Shown here piece by piece: positions 9,458 through 31,045 of a stretch of 32,000 nucleotides of DNA (positions are counted from its first letter, which is position 1; each line of letters starts with the position of its first letter). The notes below the pieces were generated by a model. It ran no database searches and was not told where the DNA came from. It saw only the letters and a list, made by a program, of their open reading frames with translations. The stretch is from assembly GCA_965224465.1 (NCBI GenBank), contig OZ245049.1, positions 4,710,001 to 4,742,000 of the forward strand, read 5' to 3'. This stretch comes from Flavobacteriaceae bacterium (GTDB taxonomy: Bacteria > Bacteroidota > Bacteroidia > Flavobacteriales > Flavobacteriaceae). A program made the position numbers and the translations under genes.

Positions 9458-9498
9458 TACCGTTTTAGCTATAGTGTAACATATCTAAGAAAATAAAA

Positions 9499-9527
9499 AG
9501 GAAGTGTTACATAACACTTCCTTTTTT
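9499..9527 (+). terminator. Rho-independent terminator after first hcp
   Basis: Perfect 10-bp stem aggaagtgtt / aacacttcct (9499-9508, 9513-9522), 4-nt loop, then a T-run to 9527. Confidence 0.8.
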
Positions 9528-9568
9528 GCGTTTAATTTAATTAGTTTAACAAAAATAAATACTATAAA

Positions 9569-9964: not shown

Positions 9965-10049
9965 AAAAGTAGAAGCATCCCTGATGCAATCAATTAAAAT
10001 GAATTTATTATTGTAATTTTTTTTAGAGAACACTATTAATTTAGAAAAT

Positions 10050-11819: not shown

Positions 11820-11851
11820 TTACAATATAAAACAGAGATAAATTATCTTAT

Positions 11852-12817
11852 ATGATAAAAGATATAGACAATGCTTATAGCCTTGGTGTTTTTGAAAATT
11901 ATAACCTTAGGCATAATTTGGAAGGTTTTTATGGTAATTATGGGTGCTCAGTTCTTTATGATGATGGCGCATCTAAAAATGAAATTAGACATAAATTAAA
12001 AATTAAATTTATAGGTAATGTATCTGAATTTGAAAATTGGTATAGAATAGAAAGAGATTCTAAGATTTATATTAATGATATTCTTTTAGATAGTTTTATG
12101 GATACGTTGGCTTTTGAAGTAGGTCAGGTACTATATCCTTTAGAGATTAATACAACATATAATGGTGTTTTGTCTAAAATTCTAAATTATACCGAAATAG
12201 TAAATAGATGGGAAAAAGAAAAAGTACTTATACATAAAAAATATAAAGGAAAAATAGTTGATGACTATGTTGCATTAGCTGATAAAACATTAAAATCAGA
12301 AGATATTTTGTTTAAAAAAATAACTTCTGATTGGTTTTTAAATTTATATTTTTCTGATTTATATAAATTCTATTCACCAGATTTATATGTTGATGATAAA
12401 ATGTACTATCCTTTATTAGGAGATACAAACCATGTAAGGTATGAAACGGTTAGTAAAATAGAAATTGAAAAAGAAGTAGGACGAACGGATGTAAGAGTTA
12501 ATATAAAAGGAACTATAAACGATGAGCGTTGTGCTCTTGATTTGGAACAAAAGCTTGACGAGCCTTATTATGGTTTGCTAAATAAAGAAGAGAAAGTACT
12601 TAAAGGAACGTGTGATATAACGTATTTATTAGATGAAAAAACGGGTGTTATTGAGGGGGTAGAAGCTGTTTTTTACACAAAATTTAAAAACCCTAAAAAA
12701 GTTTTAGTAAAAATGTTTTTAGTAGAACAACTTAAAGGAAATGAAATAGAAGAAGAGGGAAATCCAAATTTAAAAAAAGGGTTTTGGTCAAAGTTATTTA
12801 AAGGATTTAAAATATGA
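11852..12817 (+). CDS. Hypothetical protein between vgrG and PAAR-like gene (adaptor/chaperone candidate)
   Basis: 321-aa ORF with no signal peptide and no recognised motif. Its stop overlaps the next ATG (ATGA at 12814-12817). Confidence 0.6.
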   Translation: MIKDIDNAYSLGVFENYNLRHNLEGFYGNYGCSVLYDDGASKNEIRHKLKIKFIGNVSEFENWYRIERDSKIYINDILLDSFMDTLAFEVGQVLYPLEINTTYNGVLSKILNYTEIVNRWEKEKVLIHKKYKGKIVDDYVALADKTLKSEDILFKKITSDWFLNLYFSDLYKFYSPDLYVDDKMYYPLLGDTNHVRYETVSKIEIEKEVGRTDVRVNIKGTINDERCALDLEQKLDEPYYGLLNKEEKVLKGTCDITYLLDEKTGVIEGVEAVFYTKFKNPKKVLVKMFLVEQLKGNEIEEEGNPNLKKGFWSKLFKGFKI

Positions 12818-13305
12818 GTCAAAAATATATTCTTATACAGGGAGCTATGTGTAAATGTGAGTTTGGAGATTTCCCTGATAAATTAAAAGTACTTTCACAT
12901 AAAAAATATTTTGCAAATGATCCTGATGGTTCAGAAAAGTTAATAGCTACTACTATGGAAATAGGAAGTAGTACTTTTGAAAAAAACACATTTGGACAAT
13001 GTAAACTACAACCAACGGGTAGTAGTTTTAAACCCTGTCAAATTTTAGTTACGAAATGGAATGATCCTTATGAAAATTTACAACTAGGTAGTGGAGGGAA
13101 AGTTATTTTAGAAGACAGTAAGGCTATATGTCCTATATCTGGCAGCCCATGCATAAGTGTAATAGCCCATGGTCAAACTGTAGAAGGGAGTTCTAGTAGT
13201 AGTAAGGAAGCTAATTCAGATGTTCAACAACAATTAAATCCAATGGTTAATTTAGAAGAGATGAATGCCGAAAATTCTGAAATAAAAGAAATAATAATCA
13301 GTTAG
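12814..13305 (+). CDS. DUF4280-type PAAR-like protein
   Basis: 163 aa. GAMCKCEFGDFPDKLKV...FGQCKLQP...FKPCQILVTKW...AICPISGSPCISVIAHGQ matches the conserved Cys spacing and terminal GQ of DUF4280. Ser-rich acidic tail. Confidence 0.8.
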   Translation: MSQKYILIQGAMCKCEFGDFPDKLKVLSHKKYFANDPDGSEKLIATTMEIGSSTFEKNTFGQCKLQPTGSSFKPCQILVTKWNDPYENLQLGSGGKVILEDSKAICPISGSPCISVIAHGQTVEGSSSSSKEANSDVQQQLNPMVNLEEMNAENSEIKEIIIS

Positions 13306-13306
13306 T

Positions 13307-16000
13307 ATGGCAGTAGGGATAAAAAAAACAGTAGTAGTATACAATGGAATAGAAATGTCACAGAAGGTATTTCGTATAATTGCGAATAAAAAAATAAAAA
13401 TAAGAGCAATATATCACCCAAATACTCCAGAGAATCAAAAAGGGCATGCAAAATGGATTGTAGCACCTAAAAAGGATGGTCCTTTTACTAAGGGACACCA
13501 AAGTGGAAATATTGGAGACTCTAGAAGTATATCTCTAGAAGCAAAATATTGCGGACCAAAAAAGTATGTAATTGAAGCTTTTATGACAAAACCGGAAAAT
13601 AAATACCCAGCTCAATTAGTGTTTTTAGGGGTCGCTCCAGAAAAAATTATTAACACAAGATGGAGTCTTACAAATGGAGGTAAAGATATAGGAGGGTCAA
13701 CTGTTAAATATGGTCAAGAAGTTTGGTTAAATGTACAGACAGAGGGATTAAATGGTGCAGTTTTAGAGATAGATGTGTATAATAAGCAATCGGGAGATGA
13801 CAAAAAGGTATGTACAATTCCTTATGTACAATGTATGTCTGGGGAAGTTAACCATATAATTAATACCTCTTTGTGGAGAGCAACAACTGGTTGGTTTGTT
13901 ACTAATGATGAAAAGTTTTATATTAAAATAAGAAAAAGAGGAAGTTCAAGTGTTATAAAGGCGAATAAAAAAGACAACTACTTACTGATTGAAGATAAGC
14001 TTGTTAGAAGGGTGGTGGTCGAGCAAAAAAGTGCCAAGCCTGTTAAAGTAGGAAAGAGTGAAGTAAATGTAGAACGATATGACCTCTGCCGTTTTACAAA
14101 AATAGCAATTACGGAAAAAGGAAAAAATTCAATATCACTTTTTGAAGAAGGTAGAATACTTTCTGATAAACAAAAGAGAACAGAATTTCAAGCTTCTCAA
14201 ACAATTTATTTTGATTTTGATAAATGGAATGTTAAAAATGAGACCAAAAAAGTGCTAAATGGTTTAATAGACTTGTTGTTAGATAATCCATATGTGCCGT
14301 CAGAATTAGGGGCGCATTGCGATAGTAGAGGTGATGACTATTATAATGACAATTTGTCAAAGAAGCGTGCTATAGCTGTTGTCGATTATTTAGTGACAAA
14401 AGGAATATCTAGAAATAATATTAGATGGAAAGGCTATGGAAAAAGAAGACCTGTTATCCCTGGAGATCCAAATGAATTGTCAGAAGCTGAACATAAAGAG
14501 AACAGACGTGTAACCATAAAGTTTCTAATATCTGGAGGCGATGCTGAAAGTATTGTTTATGAAACTATTGCGGGAGGTGAAACAAAACCATTAGATATAA
14601 AAATAGACATTACAGATTATGTAACAGAACAGTGTCTTAGAAAAAATGATACTGCAAGAAAACATGAAGCCAATAACTTAAAAATAATAGAATTAACTTC
14701 AGACGGAAAAAATGGACCATACACTAAAGATGGTTCCAAACCAGTAAACTACAAAGTGTATTCTAGCCTTTCAAAATCTAGATTTATTCCTTTTGATTAT
14801 ATTTTACCACATAAAAGTAAAACAAATTTATTTAAGTTTTACATTAATAGTTGTAGGTATTATGCGAATAAAACAAAAGCTGCTATACTTATTAAAGTAT
14901 ATCCAGATATTAAATGGGATTTTCATTTTTACGCAAAACTAAGTAACCCTTTAGCTGTAAAATGGCAAGGATTGAGTAAAGCCAATGACACTAAAATGAG
15001 AAAAGTCAACGGGAAGATTGCAGCTCAAGAAAGATGGAAACAAACAGAAGCTGCATTTGGAGCTGTGTTAAAAGCTAGTTGGAATAAAATAGATGAATTA
15101 AACTATGATGAAACCAAAGAAATTACTGCTAAATATGAGGATAAATTTAAAACATTATATAATTTATTCTCTTCTCTAAAAAATATTTCCAAGGGAATAA
15201 CAGCTCAGACTAAAGGTAAAGCAACAAAAGTATTAGGAAGCAAACAACCTTTTGAAGTAGAGATAATCCCTCCAAATATATGCTTTGGAGCAGAATGGAT
15301 GCTCGCAAGAGGTAGTCTAAAACAAAAGGCTATAAAGGAAATAGGTACTGAGATAAAAGTTTATTTAAAGGCAGAACCACTAATCGGGCTAAAGCTTATA
15401 ATTGACCTTTTAGATATTGCTTTAAAAGGTGCATCAATGATGGCAACTGGTAATACAGTTGCAGCAGATATATTTATTCGTGTTAAAAAATGGGCTTCAA
15501 AAGGCTATGAATCCGAAAACGTTGAAATATCGTTTGACATGTGGATAGATTTAATTCTAAAAGGTACTATTAGTGGAGGTGTTGATTTTACATTAATTAC
15601 CGCCTCAGACAAGAAAGCTGTTAATGCGAACATAGATGCTAAAATAAGTGCAGAACTTAGTGCAGGTCTTAAACTGAAGGCAAAAGTGCTTATACTAAAA
15701 GCGAGTGCATGGGTAGAAGGAGAAGCTAGTGTCTCGGCTAAAATGGGAATAACCTCAGGACACACGTTTAAATATGAAACTTACAAAGGTTTATTTTATA
15801 CGCCAACATTAAAGTTAGATGCATGTATTGCCCAAGTAGTATTAATGGTAGAAGTCGGTTTGTCGTACAAAGTAATAAGTGCTGATTGGCAACCAATAAA
15901 TTATAATAAAAAAAGAGAATTCTGGGAAGAATTTGATATTATTAAAAAATTAGAACAAATATCTGGGATAAGCCCTGTAATTCAAATAATAAAACCATAA
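13307..16000 (+). CDS. Large T6SS cargo effector candidate with internal OmpA-like peptidoglycan-binding domain
   Basis: 897 aa, starting 1 nt after the PAAR-like stop. OmpA_C-like block at about nt 14200-14530: FDFDKWNV...LGAHCDSRGDDYYNDNLSKKRAIAVVDYLVTKGI...GYGKRRPV...NRRVTIKF. The C-terminal ~260 aa are rich in amphipathic/hydrophobic Ala-Gly-Leu-Lys segments (EPLIGLKLIIDLLDIALKGASMMATGNTVAADIFI; ELSAGLKLKAKVLILKASAWVEGEASVSAKMG). Confidence 0.75.
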   Translation: MAVGIKKTVVVYNGIEMSQKVFRIIANKKIKIRAIYHPNTPENQKGHAKWIVAPKKDGPFTKGHQSGNIGDSRSISLEAKYCGPKKYVIEAFMTKPENKYPAQLVFLGVAPEKIINTRWSLTNGGKDIGGSTVKYGQEVWLNVQTEGLNGAVLEIDVYNKQSGDDKKVCTIPYVQCMSGEVNHIINTSLWRATTGWFVTNDEKFYIKIRKRGSSSVIKANKKDNYLLIEDKLVRRVVVEQKSAKPVKVGKSEVNVERYDLCRFTKIAITEKGKNSISLFEEGRILSDKQKRTEFQASQTIYFDFDKWNVKNETKKVLNGLIDLLLDNPYVPSELGAHCDSRGDDYYNDNLSKKRAIAVVDYLVTKGISRNNIRWKGYGKRRPVIPGDPNELSEAEHKENRRVTIKFLISGGDAESIVYETIAGGETKPLDIKIDITDYVTEQCLRKNDTARKHEANNLKIIELTSDGKNGPYTKDGSKPVNYKVYSSLSKSRFIPFDYILPHKSKTNLFKFYINSCRYYANKTKAAILIKVYPDIKWDFHFYAKLSNPLAVKWQGLSKANDTKMRKVNGKIAAQERWKQTEAAFGAVLKASWNKIDELNYDETKEITAKYEDKFKTLYNLFSSLKNISKGITAQTKGKATKVLGSKQPFEVEIIPPNICFGAEWMLARGSLKQKAIKEIGTEIKVYLKAEPLIGLKLIIDLLDIALKGASMMATGNTVAADIFIRVKKWASKGYESENVEISFDMWIDLILKGTISGGVDFTLITASDKKAVNANIDAKISAELSAGLKLKAKVLILKASAWVEGEASVSAKMGITSGHTFKYETYKGLFYTPTLKLDACIAQVVLMVEVGLSYKVISADWQPINYNKKREFWEEFDIIKKLEQISGISPVIQIIKP

Positions 16001-19097: not shown

Positions 19098-19118
19098 GCG
19101 CGGATTTTAAATCCGCGC
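19098..19118. other. GC-rich perfect palindrome (possible terminator or recombination/protein-binding site)
   Basis: gcgcggattt t aaatccgcgc: 10-bp arms in an otherwise AT-rich region, 50 nt after the stop at 19047. No T-run follows. Confidence 0.5.
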
Positions 19119-19608
19119 CAGTAACTGTGTGTCTGCTAGGAATGTTTCACGGAAAGGTTTACGGAAAAAGGTGATTTAGGTATCATTAGAAAATACATTA
19201 GATGTTTGTGAGTTTTTAAGTAATGAAAAAAAAGATGGAAAAGAAGAACAATATTTTACAAATATTATAGCAGGCACAAAATTAAAAACAAGCCTATTTT
19301 ACAAAGTAGATATTAAAGCAAACTTAAATACCCCTATAAAAGTACTTAAAATTGAAGGAGATTATGCACAAATAAAAGTAACATCTATTACTGCAACCTT
19401 AGTTAGAGATACAGATATTAATGATAACGTAAAACCATTTAATAGCAATAAACTTTATACTATCAAAAATCTTACTACGGTTAATAAAGCATTTAATGGT
19501 CTTGCAACTAAAGATGCCACATTCAATACAAAACAAGTAAAAGCACCAAGAAATTGGAGAACAAATTTAAACAGAACTGTTACCTTTTACCCAAATGGCT
19601 ATGGTAAA

Positions 19609-21954
19609 GTGTTTTGGGTAGAAAAAACATTTATTTCCAAAATAACAGAAAAAATAAAAAAAGAAGCAGGTATAATTACCTCAATTATTCCTGACTATTT
19701 TTTAACAGAAGAACAAAAATACGAAACAGTTGAAAGAGAAGCCAAAACAGGAGAAAAAACTACATTATATGTAGATGTATGTAAGGCATATATCGAAGTC
19801 CCTTTTAGAACCGATGTAGAAGAAGTAACTGTAGAAAAAGAAAAAGTAGTTGACTTACGTAAATTTAAAAAAGTAAAAGACGATAAAAAAGACCTTTGGT
19901 ATAAAGTAGTATTAGATGATACAACTAGTAGCCAATGTGTAGCAGTAAAAGGCTGGGTAAAAGAAAAGGATCTTGACAAATTTAGCGCTTACGATTGGCA
20001 AAAATTTGGTTTTAAAGATCTAGACGCAGGTAATGAATACATATACTCTGTAAAAGACTTACGTGAGGCAACAGATAGTGCCGATTTTGTAACCGAAATT
20101 TGGGATAAAACAATAGATACAGATGGCAATAAAGTATTAGATATACTAGAGCTTATTAGAGCGTTTAGTAAACCAGAAATAGCACAAAAACTATCTCGTT
20201 TGGTATGTAAGCACAAAAATGAATGGTCTTATACTATGGACGAAATAAAACCAGAAGTAAAAGAACTCTATGATTTTGGTATACAATTAGAAGAAGTTAC
20301 AGCCGAAAAACAAAAACTAGAAACCGAAAGGGATGATAGTTTAGCCAAAATGGAAACCAAAATAGAAAATTTAATGTGGTGGGATGAGGCAAGTAAAAAA
20401 CCCTACACAGCACCCATAAAAGAAGAAGATAAAACAAAAACGAGTAGCACCAAAAGACCTTCTATGTTGCCAGAAGGTACAGTGGTAGAAGAAATACCAC
20501 AAAAAGATGTTGTACCTTTAGACAATAAAACAACAGCAGCTAAACCAGATGCTAAACCAACGAAAGATAGTATACCAACGACAAGTACAACCGCTGCTCC
20601 AGCACCAGAAACTAAAGTAGAAGAAAAAGAAGTGCCGCCAAAACGTATGTTTCCAAGTACCAATATAGTACATCACTTTCATCCAATTGCTTTTATTAGG
20701 CAAATGATGTTGTTGCAGGATAATAGTACTGATGAGTGTCCAGAACTTGTATGGGGTAAAAAAGTTTCTTGTGAATTTAGAAAACGAGTAATCCAAATAA
20801 GTAAACGTTTAGAATGTGACCCTAATCACTTAATGACAGCAATGGCATTGGAAACTGGTGGTAAATTTGATTCAGCAATTAAAAATTCAAAAGGTTATGT
20901 TGGTTTAATCCAATTTGGTGATGATGCAGTAAAAGATATAAATAAAAACTTTTTTCTTTATAGAGTAAAAATTACAAAGAGTTATTTACAAAAACTCACA
21001 GCTGAAGACCAATTGCTTTACGTGGAATATTTTTTACATCGACAAAAAGGAAAATTAAAAACTTTAGCAGATTTTTATCTAGCTGTATTAATGCCTATCG
21101 ATGTTGGTAAAGGGAATCAAAAAGATTATGTTGTCTTTGATAGTTCATTAGCACTAAATTATAAACCTAATGGTAAAGTAAAAAAAGATGTTACTTGGAT
21201 TAGAAAAAAAGGGTATAAAGCTAATCCGACTTTCCATAGAGAGGGAGATGAATACAAAAAAAACAGTAAAGGAGTTGTTTACGAGCGTCATGGGGAAGAA
21301 GGAGGTAAAACGTATGTTTGGGAAATAGCTGAAGCCATACAAGAATGGTATGATAAGGGAGTTACTGAAACTAATAATTCTAACACTTGCACTTGTAATA
21401 AAGATTGTTCTTGTGGTAAAGATTGTGTTGATTTGACCAATAAGGTCGTCTGGATAACACAGTACAATAAAAGTGAAATTAAAAACGGTATAATGAATAC
21501 TGGAGGGTGTTGGAGAACATCACAAAAACTGTTGATAAGTTCTGGTTTGGGTAAAACTTCTGGTTATCCAAAAGGTATGATTACTACAGCAAAAGAAAAT
21601 GACACTCATACTTCTATTGCTGTCACAACTGATGCAAAAGCAGGTGTAGAGTATATAAATACAGAATTAGAAAAAGGTAACCCTATATTAGTTGGTTTAA
21701 ATCATACGCTTAATTATAGGTTTAAAGGGGAAGTGATAAACGAAGGTACTACAGATCATTACGTTGTAATTGTTGGTAGAGGTTGTAAAGACAATAAACA
21801 GTATTATAGGTTTTATGAAGTAGGTACTAGTTACCCTGAAAAAGGTCAGCACTTAAATAATAAGTTATTTTTGGAAAGTAATTTTTCATTAAAAGGGAAT
21901 CCTGCAAGTAATACAAGTAAAGAATATTTTGTAAGCCAAGTAAGAAAAAATTAA
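19609..21954 (+). CDS. Toxin module 1: long N-terminal scaffold plus lytic-transglycosylase-like plus papain-fold Cys peptidase/amidase-like domains
   Basis: Frame open from 19180 but with no ATG/GTG/TTG before the GTG at 19609. N-terminal region: SH3-like pattern (KVLKIEGDYAQIKV; WYKVVLDD...VAVKGWVKEKDL), EF-hand loop DTDGNKVLDILE, coiled coil, Pro/Thr/Lys linker, junction RMFPSTNIVHHFHPIAF. Then AMALETGGKFD...GYVGLIQFG (GH23-like E...GLxQ signature), a Cys-rich linker CTCNKDCSCGKDC, then GGCWRTSQ ... TTDHYVVIVGRG (Cys/His peptidase-like). Confidence 0.75.
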   Translation: MFWVEKTFISKITEKIKKEAGIITSIIPDYFLTEEQKYETVEREAKTGEKTTLYVDVCKAYIEVPFRTDVEEVTVEKEKVVDLRKFKKVKDDKKDLWYKVVLDDTTSSQCVAVKGWVKEKDLDKFSAYDWQKFGFKDLDAGNEYIYSVKDLREATDSADFVTEIWDKTIDTDGNKVLDILELIRAFSKPEIAQKLSRLVCKHKNEWSYTMDEIKPEVKELYDFGIQLEEVTAEKQKLETERDDSLAKMETKIENLMWWDEASKKPYTAPIKEEDKTKTSSTKRPSMLPEGTVVEEIPQKDVVPLDNKTTAAKPDAKPTKDSIPTTSTTAAPAPETKVEEKEVPPKRMFPSTNIVHHFHPIAFIRQMMLLQDNSTDECPELVWGKKVSCEFRKRVIQISKRLECDPNHLMTAMALETGGKFDSAIKNSKGYVGLIQFGDDAVKDINKNFFLYRVKITKSYLQKLTAEDQLLYVEYFLHRQKGKLKTLADFYLAVLMPIDVGKGNQKDYVVFDSSLALNYKPNGKVKKDVTWIRKKGYKANPTFHREGDEYKKNSKGVVYERHGEEGGKTYVWEIAEAIQEWYDKGVTETNNSNTCTCNKDCSCGKDCVDLTNKVVWITQYNKSEIKNGIMNTGGCWRTSQKLLISSGLGKTSGYPKGMITTAKENDTHTSIAVTTDAKAGVEYINTELEKGNPILVGLNHTLNYRFKGEVINEGTTDHYVVIVGRGCKDNKQYYRFYEVGTSYPEKGQHLNNKLFLESNFSLKGNPASNTSKEYFVSQVRKN
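20603..20692 (+). repeat. Cassette junction repeat, copy 1
   Basis: 90 nt with only 4 mismatches to 22853-22942 (hand alignment, constant offset 2250 nt). Flanks diverge on both sides. Confidence 0.9.
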
Positions 21955-21959
21955 AAGGA

Positions 21960-22772
21960 ATGAAAAAAATATTAATTTTATTATTTATAAGTTTTATTTT
22001 AGTTTCTTGTTTCAAAACTAAGAAATCAAATAATACAAAAGAATTAAAAAAGGAAGTAAATAAAGAGTTAAATAAACCAAACTTAAAAAAGGAATATTTT
22101 TCTAATATTAAAGATTTTAAGGAGTTTATAAACAAAAAATGGGTAAATACAGAAATTGAAACACCTTGTGACCCTGAAAATAGAAGTATAGAGATAAACG
22201 GTGATTATCTTATTGATGAAACAGGAATGGAAGCCTTTAAATGTGAAATACTAAATATAAAAAAAATAAATTCATCTACTTTTGAATTTGAAATTATACA
22301 TGATTGCTCGTATGGAGATACTTTTAAGGTAGAAATTCTTGATTATAATAATAGATTGGTTAAATGGTCTTTTTACAACGGTATATATTATGAAGCTAGA
22401 CCTAATGATTTAGTTTGCAAAGAATATGAAGATTTACAAATTTATAAAAAACCAAAAGATGTGAAAACTCCCTTAAAATGGATAGGTAAATATTATTTTG
22501 AAGAAGAAGGAATAGGTCATACAATTATAATATCGAAAAAAGAAATGATTTATGAGTCTGTTGGGATTAGGTATTATCATAAATATAAATTAAGTGCAAA
22601 TCAAGTGAAAGATACACTAGCTTTGTATTATCATAAAGGATTGTCAGGAAATGAAGATGCATTAGAAAAATATTTACCACTGATAAGAATGTATAAAAAT
22701 AATGAACATATTTATATTAAATCAGTTTTAACTAAAACCTCATATGCACCTGTGTTAATAGAGAAATACTGA
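21960..22772 (+). CDS. Lipoprotein, immunity candidate 1
   Basis: 270 aa. MKKILILLFISFILVSCFKT lipobox. Starts 5 nt after the stop of toxin module 1. Confidence 0.7.
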   Translation: MKKILILLFISFILVSCFKTKKSNNTKELKKEVNKELNKPNLKKEYFSNIKDFKEFINKKWVNTEIETPCDPENRSIEINGDYLIDETGMEAFKCEILNIKKINSSTFEFEIIHDCSYGDTFKVEILDYNNRLVKWSFYNGIYYEARPNDLVCKEYEDLQIYKKPKDVKTPLKWIGKYYFEEEGIGHTIIISKKEMIYESVGIRYYHKYKLSANQVKDTLALYYHKGLSGNEDALEKYLPLIRMYKNNEHIYIKSVLTKTSYAPVLIEKY

Positions 22773-22852
22773 ATATAGTATATGGAAAAGTTGTAGTAAA
22801 ACAACAGTAGTTAAACCAACGGAAGATAGTACTCCAACAAAAGCACCTGCAA

Positions 22853-22958
22853 CACCAGAAACTAAAGTAGAAGAAAAAGAAGTGCCACCAGAACGTATGT
22901 TTCCAAGTACAGATATAGTACATCACTTTCATCCAATTGCTTGGGTGGAGCAGATGAG
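22853..22958 (+). repeat. Cassette junction repeat, copy 2
   Basis: 22853-22942 matches copy 1 (86/90). 22879-22958 matches copy 3 at 27550-27629 (76/80). Confidence 0.9.
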
Positions 22959-24180
22959 GTTGTTGGAAAAACAAACTGGTGAATGCTATTGTAATAGAGA
23001 TTTTGAAGCTGACGACCTTAAAGCAATGGTAAAAAGAATTAGAGATAATACTTTCTATAAAGGTAAGTCTATTACTAAATTTCATCAAGAAAGATTATTT
23101 CATGGTCGCGGAGGTGTGCCTGAATCAGATCAAAACTTTGAGAAGTTTAAAAATGTACTAAATAAATCGTTTACTAAATACGGTATAACAAATTGTATTC
23201 ATAAAATACATTTTTTAGCCAATATGTATGTAGAGACAATGTACTTTACAGCCACCGAGGAATTACCAGATCCTACTAAAAAAAGATATAATGAATACAA
23301 ACCCTATGTTGGTCGTGGTTTTATGCATTTAACTTGGGATTATCATTACAAAGAATATTCTGAAATATCAGGGAATACAGATGTTAAATCAGGGACTAAC
23401 TATAAAAAAGTAGCAAGTGATTTAGAATTGGCAGCTGACACAGCAGGTTGGTTTTGGGAAAAAAGCAAACTGAATTCTTTATCAGAAACAGATGATATTT
23501 TAAAAACCACAAAAAAAATTAATGGTAGCACTCATGGATATGAAGACCGTAGAATTGCTTGGATTAAACTTAAAGAAATATTTAATTACCCTCATGGTTG
23601 TAGTACCGATAGTAGCAAACACGAAGCACCTGTATATGGTGAAGGTGTTTTAGAAGAAATGCGTGAATGGGCAGATAAGCATGTGCAGTATAAAAAAGAA
23701 CTTGGAAGTAAATATAGAACAGCTGTTACGGAAGAAGCTTTAGGTCGATTAGATTGTTCTGAATTCGTATGCCGTTATCTCCATAAACTGGGTGTAACAA
23801 GTACAATTAAATCTATTGGAACTCAATTTATGACTACTCAAGCAAAATTTAGAACTAGTTTAGGTAATGATAATATTGAGTATATTTTAGGAAGTGAAAA
23901 GTCAGATTTTATTCCTCAAGCAGGTGATGTTTTTGTTTGGCGAACAACTGGAGGTGGACATACAGGTATTGTACATAGCGTAGATGGAGATAAAGTAACA
24001 ATATTAGAATCTATTGGACATAACGGCTCATCAGATGAAAAGTTCAATAATAATAATGGAGGGTATGAAGGTAAAAACTCCACACGTACCTCAGTTTATG
24101 ATCGTACAGGAGGTGCTCTATCAGGACACGCAGGGTGGAAAGGCTATTTCAGACCTAAAAATTACACTAAAAAAATATAA
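22882..24180 (+). CDS. Toxin module 2 (orphan-type): junction plus GH19-like glycosidase plus NlpC/P60-like peptidase
   Basis: Frame open from 22762. It retains about 45 codons homologous to the module 1 linker, and has the track GTG at 22882 and a conserved ATG at 22897. IHFLANMYVETMYF and YVGRGFMHLTWDYHYKEY (GH19 signatures), then LDCSEFVCRYL and GGGHTGIVHSV (NlpC/P60 Cys and His). Confidence 0.8.
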   Translation: MPPERMFPSTDIVHHFHPIAWVEQMRLLEKQTGECYCNRDFEADDLKAMVKRIRDNTFYKGKSITKFHQERLFHGRGGVPESDQNFEKFKNVLNKSFTKYGITNCIHKIHFLANMYVETMYFTATEELPDPTKKRYNEYKPYVGRGFMHLTWDYHYKEYSEISGNTDVKSGTNYKKVASDLELAADTAGWFWEKSKLNSLSETDDILKTTKKINGSTHGYEDRRIAWIKLKEIFNYPHGCSTDSSKHEAPVYGEGVLEEMREWADKHVQYKKELGSKYRTAVTEEALGRLDCSEFVCRYLHKLGVTSTIKSIGTQFMTTQAKFRTSLGNDNIEYILGSEKSDFIPQAGDVFVWRTTGGGHTGIVHSVDGDKVTILESIGHNGSSDEKFNNNNGGYEGKNSTRTSVYDRTGGALSGHAGWKGYFRPKNYTKKI

Positions 24181-24181
24181 A

Positions 24182-24883
24182 ATGAAATATTTAATAATAC
24201 TGGTATCTATTATTTTATTTACTAACTGTAAAGGGCAAACCGAAACGAAATCAAAAGCTATAACTACAAACGTTGAGTATTTATCTGAGCAAGAATTAGA
24301 ACCCAAGTCAAAAGAAGAACTTCGTTTGATTAGAAATGAGATGTTTGCAAGAAAGGGATATATCTTTAAAGGAAAAGACTTGCAAAATTATTTTTCAAAA
24401 CAAAAATGGTATGAGCCAAACTCTAACATTTCAATTTCTTTTACAGATGAAGAACAATTATATATTGATAAAATTAAAAGCTTAGAAAACGGAAAAAGTG
24501 ATATAACTCCAAAAAAAATAAATTGCATTGATTTTTACCATAAAGAAATTGAAAAAATATATCCTTTAACTGGAGAAAAGATTAGGAATGATCAATTACC
24601 AGATAAATTGATTGATATTGAATTACCTCACAAAGGTTTTACGGATAATATAATGGACGTTTTATCTGACGGATCAATTTTTAAATTGGACTGTAATGAG
24701 AATTCAAAATATAAACTAATTATAACTTATTATCCTGATCAAGATTTGCATGTTTACTTAATTATTAGTGACCAACAACAAATCAAAAAATTATATGGAA
24801 CTTATGTTCATGATTTTAAAAATGTAGATAAATATAATTTCATATTGGATCAGTATCCGTCCGACCATCCCCATATTTTTTAG
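24182..24883 (+). CDS. YARHG-domain lipoprotein, immunity candidate 2; 3' end replaced by IS66 insertion
   Basis: True start is likely the ATG at 24182 (MKYLIILVSIILFTNCKGQ), 1 nt after the toxin stop. LRLIRNEMFARKGYIFKGKDLQNYFSKQKWYEP is the YARHG motif. The last 10 codons (YPSDHPHIF, with the Q codon spanning the boundary) are read from the IS66 left end. Confidence 0.75.
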   Translation: MKYLIILVSIILFTNCKGQTETKSKAITTNVEYLSEQELEPKSKEELRLIRNEMFARKGYIFKGKDLQNYFSKQKWYEPNSNISISFTDEEQLYIDKIKSLENGKSDITPKKINCIDFYHKEIEKIYPLTGEKIRNDQLPDKLIDIELPHKGFTDNIMDVLSDGSIFKLDCNENSKYKLIITYYPDQDLHVYLIISDQQQIKKLYGTYVHDFKNVDKYNFILDQYPSDHPHIF

Positions 24884-24910
24884 TGGAAAAATAGCTTCTA
24901 TTTTTGACGC

Positions 24911-25219
24911 ATGAGAAAAAACGAAGAAAAACGAGCCTATATGACAGCTGTTGTTTCCGATTGGAAGTTGAGTGATTTAACCTTGGAAGATTATTGTAAA
25001 AGTCATAAAATTACACTTTGTAAATTTAGGTACTGGAATAAGAAATTGACCTCCAAAAATGCCAGTGGATTTTCAAAGGTTGAACTTATTGATGCTCCTA
25101 TTGAAAACAGCAGAAATTCTATTTTAGATAGTTTTAAAATCGAGTATCCAACAGGTGTAAATTTGGTCATTAACAAAGAGATTACACTTATCGATTTACA
25201 AAATTTAATTCATTTGTAA
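24911..25219 (+). CDS. IS66-family accessory protein (orf1/TnpA-like)
   Basis: 102-aa first ORF of the three-gene IS66 layout. Its stop is 1 nt before the next ATG. Confidence 0.7.
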   Translation: MRKNEEKRAYMTAVVSDWKLSDLTLEDYCKSHKITLCKFRYWNKKLTSKNASGFSKVELIDAPIENSRNSILDSFKIEYPTGVNLVINKEITLIDLQNLIHL

Positions 25220-25220
25220 T

Positions 25221-25562
25221 ATGCTAAATCTTTCAAGTGAACTTGATTTTCATCTGTACCTAGAACCCACAGATATGCGTAAAGGATTTAATGGTTTGTC
25301 AGGTGTTATCCGTAATAATTTAGAAGAGGATCCTAGTAATGGAGCTGTTTTTATCTTCATAAATAAACCTCGAAACAAAATAAAACTATTGCATTGGCAA
25401 GCAGGTGGATTTGTACTGTATTATAAACGATTGGAACGAGGTACTTTTGAACTTCCGGTGTATGATAATCTGAAAGGAAGTATACAAATGAAATACAGCC
25501 AAATGGTGATGCTTCTTGATGGACTGTCTATAAAAAACATCCAACAAAGGAAACGTTATTAA
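25221..25562 (+). CDS. tnpB: IS66 Orf2-like protein (TnpB)
   Basis: 113 aa. PTDMRKGFNGLSGVI and KIKLLHWQAGGFVLYYKRLERGTFELP are typical IS66 orf2 motifs. Confidence 0.9.
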   Translation: MLNLSSELDFHLYLEPTDMRKGFNGLSGVIRNNLEEDPSNGAVFIFINKPRNKIKLLHWQAGGFVLYYKRLERGTFELPVYDNLKGSIQMKYSQMVMLLDGLSIKNIQQRKRY

Positions 25563-25630
25563 TGTCTTTTTACAGGTAAAAAACCTAATAAAACCAGGCT
25601 GTTCATGTATATTTTTCGTATATTTAATGT

Positions 25631-27316
25631 ATGGAAAAAGACTTAGAACAGCTATCAAAAAAAGCACTTATAGCCCTATTACAGGAGGCTAATTCTAAGT
25701 CAGATTTACTTATCAAAAAGACAAATTCTCTTAGCTCAAAGAATGAGTTACTTAATACAAAGACAAGTTCTCTTAGCGCAAAGAATGAGTTACTTACTAT
25801 AAAGACAAAAGACGTTACTTTACAAAAGGCTATCCTAGAAGCTCAATATAAAGAATTAGAGACAAAATACGGATATGGACAATTTCAATTAGAGCAATTA
25901 CGTCGTATGATTTTTGGGACAAAACGTGAGCGTTTTATAATGGCTAATAACCCTTTTCAAATGCAACTCCCTTTCGAAGTTTTAAAAGAGATGCCCCAGG
26001 AAGAAGAAGCTCCTGTAAACATTACATATCAACGTAAAAAGGCTAAAAAAAGAACGATTGGAAGTTTAAATCTCCCCAGTCATTTACCTGTTGAAATTAT
26101 TAATTTAGAGCCTAAAGAGACTATAGAGAACCGAATAAAAATAGGTGAAGAAATTACAGATAAATTAGAACTTGTACCCACAAAGCTATACATAAAACGA
26201 TATGTCAGACCAAAATACGCCTTAAAAAAGAAAGTACAAGACACATTGATTGACAATGGAAACCCTTTAGGTATTAAGACCGTTATTATGGCTGATTTAC
26301 CAAGTTTTGCTATTGAAAAATCTGTAGCATCAAACAGCCTGCTAGCACAGCTATTGATTGATAAATTCTTAGATCACTTACCGTATTATCGACAGATAGA
26401 ACGTTTTAAACGAGAAGGAATCTCTATAAGTTCATCTACAATAAATGGATGGCAAAACAGCTTAGGACACTTACTTAAGCCGCTGTATCAGGCTATGAAA
26501 AACACGGTGCTGTCACAAGGATATGTACAGGCCGATGAATCAACTATTCCAGTGCTAGACAAACAGAAAAAAGGAAAAACTCATACTGGATATCATTGGG
26601 TGTACTATTCACCCATACAAAAAATGGTATTGTTTGATTATCGTCCCTCTAGATCTAAACATGGACCTAGAGAAATGCTTAAAAACTTTAAAGGGTATTT
26701 ACAAACAGATGGCTACGCTGTATATGATGAATTTGCACATAAAAAAGATGTCACTTTAGTAGGGTGTATGGCACATGCACGTCGTTATTTTGAGAAAGCA
26801 CTAGACTATGACAAAGTAAAAGCGAGTCATGCGATGGTACTCATTCAACAATTATATGCCATTGAGCGACATTGTAAAAAACAGGAATTTACTCCTGAGC
26901 AACGGCATGCTTATCGCCTAGATAAAGCACAACCAATAATGGATACATTTATAAAATGGTTGATCCATAACACCCAAGGAAGCTTACCGAAAAGTCCACT
27001 AGGAAAAGCAATTACTTATACATTAAAACGATGGGACTACTTAAAAGCCTACCTGTATGACGGTACTTTAGAACTAGATAATAACCTAGTAGAAGGATCT
27101 ATCAGAACATTAGCTATTGGACGTAAAAATTATTTATTTGCAGGTAGCCATGATGCTGCAAAAAATGCAGCGATGTTCTATTCCTTTTTTGGGACTTGTA
27201 AAAAACACCAAGTAAACCCCTATAAATGGATGAAAAAAATACTGGATATAATCCCTGATTACAATGCTCAAAAATTAAGTGAGCTATTTCCACAAAATTT
27301 AAACCTCGATCAATAA
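25631..27316 (+). CDS. tnpC: IS66-family transposase (TnpC)
   Basis: 561 aa. N-terminal coiled coil, LPYYRQIERFKREGI, QADESTIPVLD, GYLQTDGYAVYD, GCMAHARRYF, LDNNLVEGSIRTLAIGRKNYLFAGS. Confidence 0.95.
   Translation: MEKDLEQLSKKALIALLQEANSKSDLLIKKTNSLSSKNELLNTKTSSLSAKNELLTIKTKDVTLQKAILEAQYKELETKYGYGQFQLEQLRRMIFGTKRERFIMANNPFQMQLPFEVLKEMPQEEEAPVNITYQRKKAKKRTIGSLNLPSHLPVEIINLEPKETIENRIKIGEEITDKLELVPTKLYIKRYVRPKYALKKKVQDTLIDNGNPLGIKTVIMADLPSFAIEKSVASNSLLAQLLIDKFLDHLPYYRQIERFKREGISISSSTINGWQNSLGHLLKPLYQAMKNTVLSQGYVQADESTIPVLDKQKKGKTHTGYHWVYYSPIQKMVLFDYRPSRSKHGPREMLKNFKGYLQTDGYAVYDEFAHKKDVTLVGCMAHARRYFEKALDYDKVKASHAMVLIQQLYAIERHCKKQEFTPEQRHAYRLDKAQPIMDTFIKWLIHNTQGSLPKSPLGKAITYTLKRWDYLKAYLYDGTLELDNNLVEGSIRTLAIGRKNYLFAGSHDAAKNAAMFYSFFGTCKKHQVNPYKWMKKILDIIPDYNAQKLSELFPQNLNLDQ
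25718..25801 (+). repeat. 42-bp tandem duplication inside tnpC coiled-coil region
   Basis: aagacaaattctcttagctcaaagaatgagttacttaataca / aagacaagttctcttagcgcaaagaatgagttacttactata (about 38/42 identical). Encodes KTNSLSSKNELLNT / KTSSLSAKNELLTI. Confidence 0.85.
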
Positions 27317-27330
27317 ATCGAGGTTTTTTT
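27302..27330 (+). terminator. Terminator at end of tnpC (inside IS66)
   Basis: Stem aacctcgat / atcgaggtt, with a loop containing the TAA stop, followed by a T-run. Confidence 0.7.
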
Positions 27331-27371
27331 ATGTATTTTTAATTCCTATACGTACTTCGTCGGACGGATAC

Positions 27372-27497
27372 TTGGATCATGATAGTTTAGAGGTTACTAA
27401 AACCAATTACACTAATACAGATAATTATGAAGAAAAAGAAGTTTCAAGAGAAGTAACTAGCTATAAGTTAAAAGATATAGGTTTAGTACAGCAATAA
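27372..27497 (+). pseudogene. Displaced 3' end of the YARHG immunity gene
   Basis: Reading on from the target duplication in the same frame as 24182.. gives LDHDSLEVTKTNYTNTDNYEEKEVSREVTSYKLKDIGLVQQ, stop at 27495-27497. Confidence 0.7.
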
Positions 27498-27549
27498 ACA
27501 AAAAGTTATTAATTAACAGATCAAGCCACAGCATAGTATACCGTAGAAA

Positions 27550-27699
27550 GAAGTGCCACCAGAACGTATGTTTCCAAGTACCAATATAGTACATCACTTT
27601 TATCCAATTGCTTGGGTGGAGTAGATGAGACTTGTTTTTGGAGAGGGTGGCGGAGATTGTTTTTGTAATAAAGATTTTACAGTTGATGATGTAAAGAAA
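27550..27699 (+). pseudogene. Toxin module 3, 5' fragment (junction copy 3 with in-frame TAG)
   Basis: EVPPERMFPSTNIVHHFYPIAWVE*MRLVFGEGGGDCFCNKDFTVDDVKK. TAG at 27622-27624 where modules 1, 2 and 4 have CAG (Gln). His to Tyr change in the motif. Upstream linker shortened relative to copies 1 and 2. Confidence 0.85.
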
Positions 27700-28821
27700 G
27701 CTGAATTCAAGTCACAAACGCAACTTTTAGTTAAATAATAATTGTTCCATTACAAATATAGGGTTTTGATATTTATGTCTCTTCCTAGGTCTGTTATTTA
27801 ATTTTGTTTCTACCTCTTTGATTCTTTGATCTGTTAGGTTTGTAAAGTCACTTCCTTTGGCAAAATATTGTCTAATCAAACCATTTAAATTTTCGTTAGA
27901 TCCTCTTTCCCAAGAGTGATATGGATGCGCAAAAAAGTAATCAATACATAAATTTTCTGCAACCTGCTCATGGCCTGCAAATTCTTTTCCATTATCAGCT
28001 GTTATAGTATGTAGATAAGGCTTCCAGTCTTCTAATATTTCATTGATAGCTTTAGTGACAACAACTGCTTCTTTAGAGCTTACTTTTTTCATTTTAAGCA
28101 TTCCAGAAGCTCTATCATTTACGGTAAGTATGGCTTGATTATGGTTTTTACCTATGATTAAATCGACCTCTAAATCTCCAAATCGATTTCTTTGTTCAAC
28201 AACTTCAGGGCGTTGTTCTATACTAATACGATTCTTTATAACCCCTCTAGAATCCTTTGATGAGCCACGTTTTCTATATCTCCTTCCCTGTCTGCGAAGG
28301 TGTGTATGTAAATCACCATCATTCCTCTTGTCTTCCCTAATATGCTGATATATACGCTCAATAGACACCGTTTCTTTACCTTGTTTTTTTAGGACACCAA
28401 CTACTTGCTCAGGACTATAATCGTCTCGCAATAACAACTCTATTGCTTGTTGAATATCTTCTGTAAAGCGTTTTCTTTTAGGCTTTTCTTTATGACGTTT
28501 AGCATACTTTTTTTGGGCTAATTCATGCTTGTAAACTCCATTTCTTTTGTCTGAATTACGCTTAATCTCTTTGCTAATAACAGACTTGTCTTTTCCTATA
28601 GCAGCTGCTATCTCAACCTGTTTATAACCTTGTTTTAACATGCAACAAATTGTGTATCTTTGCGCTTGGGTGATGTGTTTCATACAACTTCTTTTTTCGA
28701 GATTTGAGACCGTAAGATACATATCCATCAAGACAAGAAAGGTAGGTTTTCCTACTTTTCTGTTTTGAAAATATAACCATCATAGAATCAAATCGAAAAG
28801 TTGCGTTTATTAGTTGAATTT
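27700..28821 (-). mobile_element. IS30-family insertion sequence (about 1.12 kb) inserted in toxin module 3
   Basis: Imperfect ~26-bp terminal inverted repeats gaattcaagtcacaaacgcaactttt (27703-27728) and aaaagttgcgtttattagttgaattt (28796-28821). Apparent duplication aagaaa (27694-27699 and 28822-28827). Removing the IS plus one repeat restores the frame ..DDVKK IVKTITG.. Exact ends are uncertain by a few nt. Confidence 0.85.
27727..28731 (-). CDS. IS30-family transposase
   Basis: 334-aa ORF; the likely true start is MKHITQAQR at 28683. N-terminal HTH (YKQVEIAAAIGKDKSVISKEIKRN), DDE core with LEVDLIIG, TITADNGKEF, SWERGSNENLNGLIRQYF. Confidence 0.93.
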   Translation of the reverse strand: MMDMYLTVSNLEKRSCMKHITQAQRYTICCMLKQGYKQVEIAAAIGKDKSVISKEIKRNSDKRNGVYKHELAQKKYAKRHKEKPKRKRFTEDIQQAIELLLRDDYSPEQVVGVLKKQGKETVSIERIYQHIREDKRNDGDLHTHLRRQGRRYRKRGSSKDSRGVIKNRISIEQRPEVVEQRNRFGDLEVDLIIGKNHNQAILTVNDRASGMLKMKKVSSKEAVVVTKAINEILEDWKPYLHTITADNGKEFAGHEQVAENLCIDYFFAHPYHSWERGSNENLNGLIRQYFAKGSDFTNLTDQRIKEVETKLNNRPRKRHKYQNPIFVMEQLLFN

Positions 28822-30102
28822 AAGAAAATTGTTAAAACCATTACAGGAAAAGAAGAAATTTGGCAAGGAAAACAAGGTTATCCATGCCCTATAACAGATA
28901 AAAGTTATGACACACTAGTTAATGAATTAAACATAATGTTTGAAAAATATGATATTAATGAGTGTATTCAAAAAATAGCATTTTTAGCCCAAGTAGGAGC
29001 AGAAACAGGAATGTTTAGGCAATCAGTAGAAGAAAAGGGAAATACATCATCTAGCCAAAGTGTTTACAAAGGAAGAGGTATCATACAATTAACTGGAGGT
29101 ATAGTTACTTCAACGGGTTTGTATGATGAACCTGATGTATATCAAAGTTATGCTGATTATATTAAAGATCAGGATATTGTAACTAGCCCTAATACAATTG
29201 CAGAAAATATTCATTATACAATTGATTCTGCAGGATGGTATTTTTCAAAGCATAAAAAAATACCTAAATGGAGTACTACTACTACTACTGGGGCAAATGC
29301 AAGCGTTTATAAAAAGAAAAGGAAGCATTTTAGTAAAGCTTTGGGCAAATCTTTAAATGAAACATCTTTATTAATTAAAGAAGGTGCTAAGTATTTCTGG
29401 TTACAATCTAAGGTTATAAATGGGTATGGAAGAAGTCAATATTTGAAACCAGATCCAAATGGTTGGTCTCATAGGCTTAAGGTATTTAATAAATTGAATC
29501 CTATTTTTAAATTTAATACAGCTTGTATAAATAATCCTAATATTTATAAATTAAAGGATCGTGCATCATGGATACAGATAGCATATGGTGAATTATGGAC
29601 AGAAGAAATTTCTGGTTCAAAACATAATCCTAGAATACTTGAATATCATGCATCCGCAGGTCATACAGGTAGTAATATAACTGATGATAGTAATTGGCCA
29701 TGGTGTTCTTCTTTTGTATGTTGGGTATTTACTCAATCAAAAGAATATACAGGGGAAATAACGGCAAAAGCAACTAATTGGAATAATTGGGGCAAGGAAG
29801 ATTCTAAAGATAAACCTATGTATGGGTCATTAGCTGTTATAGATTGGGACGAAAATGATGATGGTGCAGGACATGTTGGATTTGTTGTTAATGTAGATGG
29901 AGACAATGTTTATTTACTAGGAGGTAATCAAACAGGTGGTGATAAAAGTACTTATGGTAAAGTATGTGTATCTCGCTATGACAAATCTGTAATTGATTAT
30001 TTTAGAATACCTGAAAACTATACTCCAGAACAAAAAGATTATAAATATGATGAATTTAAAAATACAAACCTCAGTGTTGAAACCTTATCTAGTACTCGTT
30101 AA
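28822..30102 (+). pseudogene. Toxin module 3, 3' part: GH19-like glycosidase plus TIGR02594/NlpC-P60-like domain
   Basis: The track ORF 28801..30102 starts at a TTG inside the IS30 inverted repeat. IAFLAQVGAETGMF and YKGRGIIQLTGG (GH19 signatures). WIQIAYGEL...NPRILEYHASAG, WPWCSSFVCWVF, AGHVGFVV...LLGGNQ (NlpC/P60-superfamily, TIGR02594-like). Confidence 0.8.
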
Positions 30103-31045
30103 AATAAGTATACTTGCTTTTTGTTTAATTTCGTGTAAAAATGAGAAAAAAGAAAATCTAATTTCTTCTCAGAATAGCATAAATAAAACTTACAAAGGAA
30201 GAAAAGTTATTAAAGAAGTTATGTTTAAATATAATAAACAAAACTTAAAATCTATATTTTTATTAAAAGAGGAAGGAGAACTCGGTACTAAAGGTTTTAC
30301 TAAAGAGTTAGAAGTTTTAATTTTAAATAAAGATATTTTAATTGATAGCTTTTCTTTTAAAAATAAAAGTATCCTTTGTGACTTAAAGATTTTAATTGAT
30401 GAAATTAAGGTTATAAATGAGGATAATCATCAAATTTTATTCTTTCCTATTATACATAGCTGTGATGGTGAAGAACCTAAATTGCTAAAAATAAATATTT
30501 GGGATGATAAGAAATCAAGTTATGAAATAGGTATTCCTGTATATTTTCAAAATTCAGAAAGTAAAAGAGAGTTTGCAGAAAGTGTTTCTTTAATTAATTT
30601 TAAATCAAATCAAATTAGAAATAACGCATATATTACAATAGGTAAAGAGACAAAAATTAATCTATTTAAAATTAAGGGTGAAAAATCTAATAAGATAGAT
30701 AGAGAAAATCCTAAATGTTTTACAGAATCTGATATTTCTAAAATCAAAGATTTTTTTGCTGTACCAACAAAAGATAATTTTTTTAATAATTTTGATAAAA
30801 AAGAAAATATAAGTGTAGAGTATATAGTTAGTTACTTGAAGAGTACAGATTGTTTAAATCAAAATATATCTATAACTAAAATTAATGATTGTACAGATGA
30901 ATTGAAATGTGAGATCTATTGTTCTTTCAATTTAACACAAGATGAAAAAGATGACGGAGAGCTAAGTGAGGAAACTTTATATATTTATTTTAATAAAATT
31001 AATGGCAAAATCTACTTAAATAAATTAGAGTCTGAAGGTAGATAA
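30047..31045 (+). CDS. Lipoprotein, immunity candidate 3
   Basis: Track ORF 29993..31045. The plausible start is the ATG at 30047, giving MMNLKIQTSVLKPYLVLVKISILAFCLISCKNE (lipobox LISC). Overlaps the toxin 3' end. Start uncertain. Confidence 0.65.
   Translation: MMNLKIQTSVLKPYLVLVKISILAFCLISCKNEKKENLISSQNSINKTYKGRKVIKEVMFKYNKQNLKSIFLLKEEGELGTKGFTKELEVLILNKDILIDSFSFKNKSILCDLKILIDEIKVINEDNHQILFFPIIHSCDGEEPKLLKINIWDDKKSSYEIGIPVYFQNSESKREFAESVSLINFKSNQIRNNAYITIGKETKINLFKIKGEKSNKIDRENPKCFTESDISKIKDFFAVPTKDNFFNNFDKKENISVEYIVSYLKSTDCLNQNISITKINDCTDELKCEIYCSFNLTQDEKDDGELSEETLYIYFNKINGKIYLNKLESEGR

Follow-up and report, generated by a model that had tools for sequence, protein, structure and literature searches.

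The effector with the closest described architecture to the proteins considered here is TseP of Aeromonas dhakensis (Wang et al., eLife 2025; PMC11893102), which is secreted by a type VI secretion system (T6SS). That paper describes an N-terminal part (TseP-N, residues 1-603), an amidase that depends on zinc, can be superimposed on a LytM protein, binds VgrG2 and is required for the T6SS to assemble, and a C-terminal part (TseP-C, residues 604-845) that is a lysozyme, with the experimental split placed at 603/604; an EF-hand is noted, and the authors propose that the two parts were joined by recombination (PMC11893102). The junction between a constant and a variable toxin region is a well-known design principle, and VENN in CdiA and PxxxxDPxGL in Rhs proteins mark such junctions. 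We analysed a window of 32,000 nucleotides (nt) from a Flavobacteriaceae bacterium (assembly GCA_965224465.1, contig OZ245049.1, positions 4,710,001 to 4,742,000, forward strand), in which a 104-nt element at 20603-20706 recurs nearly unchanged. An earlier note, made from the sequence alone, had proposed this element as a recombination handle or a pre-toxin demarcation motif comparable to VENN and PxxxxDPxGL. Our analysis makes it quite likely that the motif is the junction of a polymorphic, TseP-like family of T6SS cell-wall effectors with arrays of orphan toxin cassettes, and that it acts both as a demarcation and as a homology handle.

The border of constant and variable regions

Four tandem modules (A, B, C and D) lie on the forward strand of the window, each bearing one copy of the motif, whose full form is R-x-FP-x4-V-[YWH]-HFHPIA-[FW]-[VI]-[EN]-[QH]-M-[KR]. 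Identity of the copies was checked by 20-nt sliding windows, a repeat search and MAFFT alignment, and the mismatch counts given in the earlier note were exact on recount, with 4 of 90 nt between 20603-20692 (A) and 22853-22942 (B) and 4 of 80 nt between 22879-22958 (B) and 27550-27629 (C). Inside the tract, copies A, B and C are 95-96% identical and 18-20 of 20 nt match, whereas matching falls to the random level of 3-10 of 20 nt by 20-40 nt beyond the tract on either side, so that the identity across the junction, when computed, stands well above that of its flanks. The repeat search recovered the three-copy family independently, together with a weaker fourth copy at 31876-31916. The remainder of the note's description held as well: the 5' linkers carry indels, of which we confirmed one of 9 nt between A and B (a spacing of 2259 versus 2250 nt between repeat families); downstream of the motif, A and B have no similarity past the first 30 residues, and B and C are alike only at the protein level (25% identity over 383 residues); and copy D keeps the peptide KFPTDSNVYHFHPIAFVEQM at 31851-31910 but not the nucleotide identity, its DNA being 77-81% identical over a 31-nt core only. 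Without gaps, the DNA homology in the window ends +37 nt from the Phe codon for A versus B or C, and +54 nt for B versus C. The sharp 5' edge is the truncation point of each orphan cassette.

The same 3' border is met elsewhere. Tandem copies that bear different toxins lose their ungapped DNA homology +58 to +62 nt from the Phe codon, just past Q-M-K-R, in seven other genomes. In Tenacibaculum maritimum, proteins so named by their sources share 99-100% of 863 residues up to and including the motif but 14-34% beyond it, with four toxin types; they are recorded on contigs that differ in length, which suggests that the alleles come from different assemblies, and the pattern is one of allelic replacement at the junction within one species. 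The note's proposal of ongoing recombination or gene conversion between cassettes is thus supported by comparison, through the tract ends in seven genomes and the T. maritimum alleles, while recombination in the window genome is something that we infer and have not observed.

What follows the motif is highly diverse. Among 184 C-termini of at least 120 residues each, at least 28 first-domain clusters were not linked by BLAST, and a smaller set of 50 sequences gave 12 such families; by Pfam, they are lysozyme, M23, CHAP, GH19, PG_binding or VgrG3_C-like domains, or nothing. The inference that unrelated C-terminal domains share the motif as their boundary is borne out by these numbers, and the opposite case raised in the note, in which the motif would be the conserved N-terminal strand of one enzyme family, is ruled out by the clustering; related GH19-like and CHAP toxins do follow copies B and C, but with so many unlinked families past the motif, we give this reading practically no weight. 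On one contig of 5,241,564 bp, presumably from the genome to which the window belongs, a search with the region upstream of the motif in A found 13 paralogues that share ...EKEVPP[KE]RMFP..IVHHFHPIAWVEQM[KR], and their C-termini past the motif are phage lysozyme, M23, M15-like plus PG_binding, GH19 plus CHAP, or unrecognised. For other genomes, a degenerate DNA pattern for F-P-x4-V-x-HFHPIA, with about one chance hit in the genome collection expected by hand estimate, matched 31 stretches, and the recurrence of the motif is therefore not due to chance. All matches are from marine Bacteroidota (about 30 genomes; Aquimarina, Tamlana, Pseudotamlana, Tenacibaculum, Olleya, Cellulophaga, Labilibaculum, Saccharicrinis, Marinifilum, Fulvivirga, Cytophagales and Saprospiraceae), and two to three tandem motif copies occur in 9 of the 31 stretches. 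Positions left free in the pattern are conserved, namely R at -2 and then [FW]-[VI]-[EN]-[QH]-M-[KR]-[RLM]-[IM]. An exhaustive HMMER search yielded 201 cluster representatives of the family; the motif or a close variant is present in 210 of 255 gathered family sequences, and the nucleotide core was not found in viral contigs.

In front of the motif, all full-length proteins have one homologous N-terminal region of 650-1100 residues, in which the motif is preceded by a split M23/LytM-like domain with a WHGGIH signature, an SH3 domain, an EF-hand, a coiled coil whose last residues are NLxFWD, and a linker that varies. In many lineages, the motif lies 10-20 residues past the end of the coiled coil (NLxWWDxV), which marks the 90-residue low-complexity linker found in the window clade as an insertion. 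An alignment of 32 sequences has the WHGGIH, YSLYxHL and HxEVF (HLEVF) blocks invariant or nearly so, which form a predicted split LytM-like domain of putative activity, and it also conserves a KLVCKHxSEW block, the W of NLxFW and the motif residues V826, H828, H830 and P831. Neither Pfam nor NCBIfam holds a model that covers the N-region or the motif, and only weak M23, SH3_3 and EF-hand hits were obtained: the Pfam M23 hit is weak in the family here (E about 0.005), with M23 precomputed or annotated for several homologues, EF-hand_1/6/7 is found in the homologues L031 and L022, and window copies A and D contain a DxDxDxxL block. The motif was unfamiliar to the author of the note from described pre-toxin domains, which agrees with the lack of a family model and with the literature searched, where we found no description of the motif string or of a Bacteroidota T6SS effector family of this type; the motif, the polymorphism of the family and the Bacteroidota arrays appear to be undescribed.

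AlphaFold2, given a 964-residue homologue with a short linker and a 42-sequence alignment, predicted the N-region with a predicted local distance difference test score (pLDDT) mostly above 90, and the toxin end was left unmodelled. At the end of the N-region, the motif is predicted as a strand (713-717, NVYHF) followed by a helix (719-730, PIAFVEQMKMIV) with pLDDT of 92-95, and a model of the window D fragment (304 residues, lacking the M23 domain) has the same strand and helix at 65-82. The sole other strand of the D model outside its SH3-like part is the KFICKH block (138-143), and we infer that the motif strand would pair with it and close the EF-hand/helical subdomain. The idea of a pre-toxin motif consequently needs to be divided: the demarcating role stands, but a free-standing pre-toxin domain does not, as the motif is predicted to be the last structural element of a conserved TseP-N-like N-region. 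A Foldseek comparison of the full-length model with the PDB gave no significant match, and PDB sequence searches with a full-length homologue and with an Aeromonas homologue returned nothing.

The gene neighbourhood points to secretion and to immunity. VgrG is encoded directly 5' of the full-length gene in six genomes (L003, L010, L011, L015, L029 and L031), in two of them together with Hcp, and this gene order suggests that the constant region is carried by VgrG as a T6SS effector. Across genomes, 35 of 38 toxin open reading frames (ORFs) are followed at -32 to +24 nt by a same-strand ORF of 117-337 residues, most of which have a signal peptide visible by eye and 24 of the 35 a lipobox pattern. 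These lipoprotein-like ORFs are probably the cognate immunity genes, with protection predicted from their position and signals, and signal-peptide or lipoprotein ORFs after the toxins fit periplasmic immunity against cell-wall hydrolases.

We propose the following mechanism. The 104-nt element encodes the C-terminus of the constant part of a polymorphic T6SS effector linked to VgrG, the sequence past the motif would be an exchangeable peptidoglycan-hydrolase toxin, and the lipoprotein ORF that comes next would probably provide immunity. The near-identical DNA would be a remnant of the constant region, kept by each truncated toxin-immunity cassette with a different upstream length, and this remnant would supply the homology that lets a full-length gene acquire a different toxin end through homologous recombination or gene conversion. 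Candidate recipients are the full-length paralogues P0015 and P0012+P0002, both present in the same genome, and such a use of cassettes would parallel the orphan cassettes of Rhs and CdiA. For practical purposes, the marker FP-x4-V-x-HFHPIAFVEQM finds T6SS effectors and orphan toxin-immunity cassettes in marine Bacteroidota, including the fish pathogen T. maritimum, in proteins to which the current family libraries give no effector annotation, and the motif would be a natural splice point for engineered chimeric effectors.

The cassette array in the window

The features of the window are collected in Table 1. Full-length homologues align to module A in tblastn only from the equivalent of residue ~342, so that all four modules, including A, are 5'-truncated; the M23-like domain is missing from A. 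Upstream of the FP of the motif, A keeps ~490 codons, B ~46, C ~9 and D 256, as counted from open frames or constructs for A, B and D and from the start of homology for C. The toxin of module D runs past the end of the window, and its complete product, P0016, has 495 residues. In module C, the motif carries a CAG>TAG nonsense codon and HFHP is changed to HFYP, and its C-terminus is split by the IS30 element and resumes at 28821; with the nonsense codon and this insertion, copy C is dead. The array as a whole is decaying through insertion sequence (IS) elements, with IS66 in the immunity gene of B and IS30 in the toxin of C.

Table 1. Coordinates of the motif tract, the cassette modules and the surrounding features in the window
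Feature	Positions	Strand	Description
Homology tract of A, common to B and C	20546-20715	+	From repeats and alignment; motif peptide RMFPSTNIVHHFHPIAFIRQM encoded at 20644-20706
Module A	19180-21954	+	5'-truncated effector: SH3/EF-hand/coiled coil, low-complexity linker, motif, lysozyme-like C-terminus of the 'ELVWGKKVSCEFR' family (C-terminal cluster 2)
Putative immunity gene of A	21960-22772	+	Lipoprotein-like signal (MKKILILLFISFILVSC)
Module B	22795-24180	+	Orphan; ~33-46 linker codons before the motif (R codon 22894, motif through 22956), then GH19-like + CHAP toxin
Putative immunity gene of B	24182-24883	+	YARHG domain, lipoprotein-like signal; 3' end broken by IS66
IS66-family element	24853-27372	+	Three ORFs at 24911-27316; 14-nt perfect inverted ends; 8-bp target duplication TTGGATCA at 24845-24852 and 27373-27380
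Module C	27538-30102	+	Decayed orphan; ~9 codons before the motif (R codon 27565); GH19-like + CHAP-like C-terminus
IS30-family element	27704-28820	-	Transposase 27727-28731; 25-nt inverted ends; within the toxin of module C
Putative immunity gene of C	30047-31045	+	Lipoprotein-like signal
Module D	31086-32000	+	Orphan; 256 constant-region residues (SH3-like, EF-hand, coiled coil) before the motif at 31851-31910; TIGR02594/NlpC-like toxin
T6SS context	9071-13305	+	Hcp/TssD 9071-9457 and 9569-9964, both intact; VgrG 10050-11819; unknown 321-residue ORF; DUF4280 PAAR-like 12814-13305 (Pfam)

The frame of module A is open from 19180, with no in-frame ATG before 19609. The only nearby ATG, at 19223, lies in an A8 run (ATGAAAAAAAAG) and in another frame, and one added A would join the two frames; the paralogous full-length gene shows a similar break, between P0012 and P0002 in a K-rich stretch, which points to a homopolymer sequencing error or slippage. 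Just 5' of the truncated module A, the AT-rich spacer holds a GC-rich hairpin (CGCGCGGATTTTAAATCCGCGC) at ~19098-19119, which may act as a terminator or mark where the cassette array begins. The first 38 nt of the orphan D (31087-31124) are 87% identical to the pre-motif linker of A (20594-20631) and B (22844-22881), and they are followed by the mid-domain and not by the motif; this likeness may be what is left of an older junction between cassettes, or a coincidence in low-complexity sequence. Antisense ORFs over the motif copies (20518-20796, minus strand, 92 residues; 22732-23088, minus strand, 118 residues) are F-rich mirrors of the E/K-rich linker and probably spurious. Among metagenome contigs (L001 and L002), the gene at 573-809 of L001 encodes a 78-residue ORF, P0014, with the coiled-coil end, the linker, the motif and a stop ~20 residues later, which by its composition is a minimal orphan stub in an unrelated metagenome.

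Further upstream in the window, an ORF at 8184-8693 (plus strand) matches only positions 55-127 of the TssD/Hcp model and is a truncated Hcp copy ahead of the two intact ones. The DUF4280 PAAR-like gene is directly followed by that of an 897-residue OmpA-domain protein (12814-16000 for the pair, plus strand), and the two appear to form an effector module of their own within this T6SS cluster. One ORF of 1274 residues at 1526-5350 (plus strand) carries the complete acetyl-CoA-synthetase unit (ACAS_N, AMP-binding and AMP-binding_C) in duplicate and is either a tandem fusion or has lost a stop codon.

Alternative readings and the nucleotide level

The motif could be a structural element of the constant region and nothing beyond that, in which case the DNA identity in the window would be the passive relic of a recent duplication without a role in exchange. 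We regard this as unlikely. A confidently predicted strand and helix at the end of the N-region would be expected of such an element, a degenerate motif is kept in proteobacterial homologues where no orphan arrays were seen, and the window copies are all truncated, one of them dead; but same-species alleles would then have no reason to differ exactly at the motif, nor tract ends to coincide at +58 to +62 nt in seven genomes, and constraint on the protein only does not explain the conservation of synonymous sites in the 3' half of the motif. This last point deserves attention of its own. Over 28 genomes, motif codons 0-11 are at background codon usage (z = -0.1), whereas codons 12-21 deviate (z = 9.2). 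As a same-codon statistic is insensitive at two-fold sites, we applied a G-test to 20 full-length genes, over every conserved degenerate column of the N-region (87 in total), and the four most deviant columns fall without exception within the 3' half of the motif (GCT 20/20, GTG 11/15, GAG 12/14 and ATT 19/20), with G statistics of 25.7-38.4 against a maximum of 13.4 among the 72 non-motif columns. Two of the four are rare G-ending codons, kept against backgrounds of 13% (GTG) and 21% (GAG). The 3' half, ATTGCTTTTGTGGAGCAG, is conserved as nucleotides across classes, and the Aquimarina clade, with ATT AAT CAA ATG AAA, lacks the pattern. The pattern might arise from selection or filtering for the ability to recombine, from cassettes spreading horizontally, or from an expression signal. 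Only tentatively do we suggest that the last 18-27 nt of the junction (ATTGCTTTTGTGGAGCAG[ATGAAGAGG]) are under selection as DNA too, as a recombination signal or hotspot shared across four Bacteroidota classes. If so, an 18-27-nt signal would target crossovers to the constant/variable border and let toxin-immunity cassettes cross species, and there would be a nucleotide-level handle in a polymorphic toxin system, beyond a by-product of protein conservation. A more specific version, in which the 3' half (ATTGCTTTTGTGGAGCAGATGAAGAGG) is a dedicated signal, that is, a Chi-like hotspot or a recombinase site that directs crossovers to the border, would account for the rare codons and for the step in z between the two halves of the motif, but is doubtful: no recombinase gene lies beside the arrays, the window holding only the IS66 and IS30 transposases; the Aquimarina clade manages with ordinary codons; horizontal cassette spread could give the same pattern; and neither enrichment nor strand skew was clear for core sub-words over 270 kb, a check that is uninformative on Chi-like behaviour. 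The conserved rare codons pose a testable question, namely whether nucleotide homology itself is selected for cassette exchange.

Processing and expression signals fare worse. Self-cleavage at the motif to free the toxin end, comparable to the DPxGL aspartyl site of Rhs, could make use of the two invariant histidines at the domain border (H828 and H830 of alignment A5), and the N and C halves of Aeromonas TseP, made as separate constructs split near this point, are each secreted according to the passages of the TseP paper drawn on here (PMC11893102). The same passages are silent on cleavage of the full-length protein (PMC11893102), however, the family has neither homology to known autoproteolytic modules nor DPxGL, VENN or HINT signatures, and AlphaFold2 places an ordered strand and helix where a cleavage site would be, so that we hold this to be very improbable. 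An internal start codon, ribosome site or promoter, which would express the orphan toxin end and especially its immunity gene, has in its favour an ATG at motif codon 18 in 45 of 47 copies (TTG in the other two), flanked by GGAG and AGAGG, and orphan immunity genes are useful only if expressed. Yet only 3 nt separate GGAG from the ATG, and Bacteroidota largely initiate translation without Shine-Dalgarno sequences. The same position is also F or L in the wider family and no promoter consensus was recognised by eye, which leaves an expression signal scarcely credible.

Several points also weigh against the junction and homology handle that we favour. In the window genome, which the collections searched contain as a single assembly and whose window copies are all truncated, we saw neither a recombinant nor a switching event. 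The search pattern demanded F, P, V and HFHPIA, so invariance at these positions is by construction, and motif-bearing proteins with a different N-region could have been missed by the searches used. The docking of the motif onto the constant region was derived only from pLDDT and secondary-structure assignment. Membership in the TseP family is putative and drawn from shared architecture. With these points counted in, a junction that both demarcates the toxin and provides homology for its exchange is the reading that we prefer.

Relation to Rhs, CdiA, marker-bearing effectors and TseP

As in Rhs and CdiA, a short conserved peptide marks where the constant delivery region gives way to a variable toxin, the immunity gene comes directly downstream, tandem 5'-truncated cassettes keep the junction and upstream homology, and alleles differ exactly at the junction. 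The analogy with VENN and PxxxxDPxGL drawn in the earlier note therefore applies to the constant/variable boundary, the C-terminal diversity and the allelic replacement at the motif. The family belongs to neither system: a regular-expression scan of P0001, P0002, P0015, P0016 and P0180 found no YD repeats and no PxxxxDPxGL, and there were no Rhs Pfam hits, and for CdiA the scan of the same five proteins found no VENN, and there were no haemagglutinin/FHA Pfam hits. The constant region here is a globular, enzyme-like carrier, whereas it is a shell or filament in Rhs and CdiA; the recognisable toxins all target peptidoglycan, unlike those of Rhs and CdiA; and the junction is modelled as a folded strand and helix, not as a protease site. 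The MIX, FIX, RIX and WHIX markers resemble the motif as short conserved sequences that flag T6SS effectors with diverse toxin ends; the Pfam searches gave no hit that would tie the motif to them. In Proteobacteria, these markers denote secretion from an N-terminal or internal position and do not form the swap point.

The family has relatives in Proteobacteria. Searching with a profile brought in homologues of Aeromonas, Metapseudomonas, Burkholderia and Dyella (whole-length profile E 1e-27 to 1e-59; BLASTP alignment covers 6-10% of P0015), among them proteins of 835 residues and the same architecture from A. dhakensis and A. hydrophila (E 1e-57 to 1e-59 against the profile; BLASTP covers ~10% of P0015). 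By eye, they contain the same WHGGIH, EF-hand and KHPSEW blocks, and degenerate versions of the motif are KEVWHFSPIG at residues 601-610 (Aeromonas) and FPxSPxVYHIHPIALVGNF. The Aeromonas homologue P0188 was considered as TseP itself and rejected, as it gave no hit to PDB 8XCL. The TseP paper describes no junction motif, and the words Bacteroid*, orphan, polymorphic and linker are all absent from it (PMC11893102). TseP and the window family are alike in an N-region of ~600 residues or more with an M23/LytM-like zinc site (HxxxH; predicted in the window family) and an EF-hand, in a gene placed downstream of vgrG and in a C-terminal cell-wall glycosidase, and the TseP split lies at 603/604, the degenerate motif of the Aeromonas homologues of the window family at 601-610. 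TseP is described as a fixed two-domain fusion, whereas the window family has a highly polymorphic C-terminus, occurs in Bacteroidota and is accompanied by arrays of truncated cassettes. Amidase-lysozyme effectors of the TseP type, described so far as a fixed fusion, would thereby be widened into a polymorphic system in which dozens of cell-wall hydrolases can be exchanged at a pinpointed junction.

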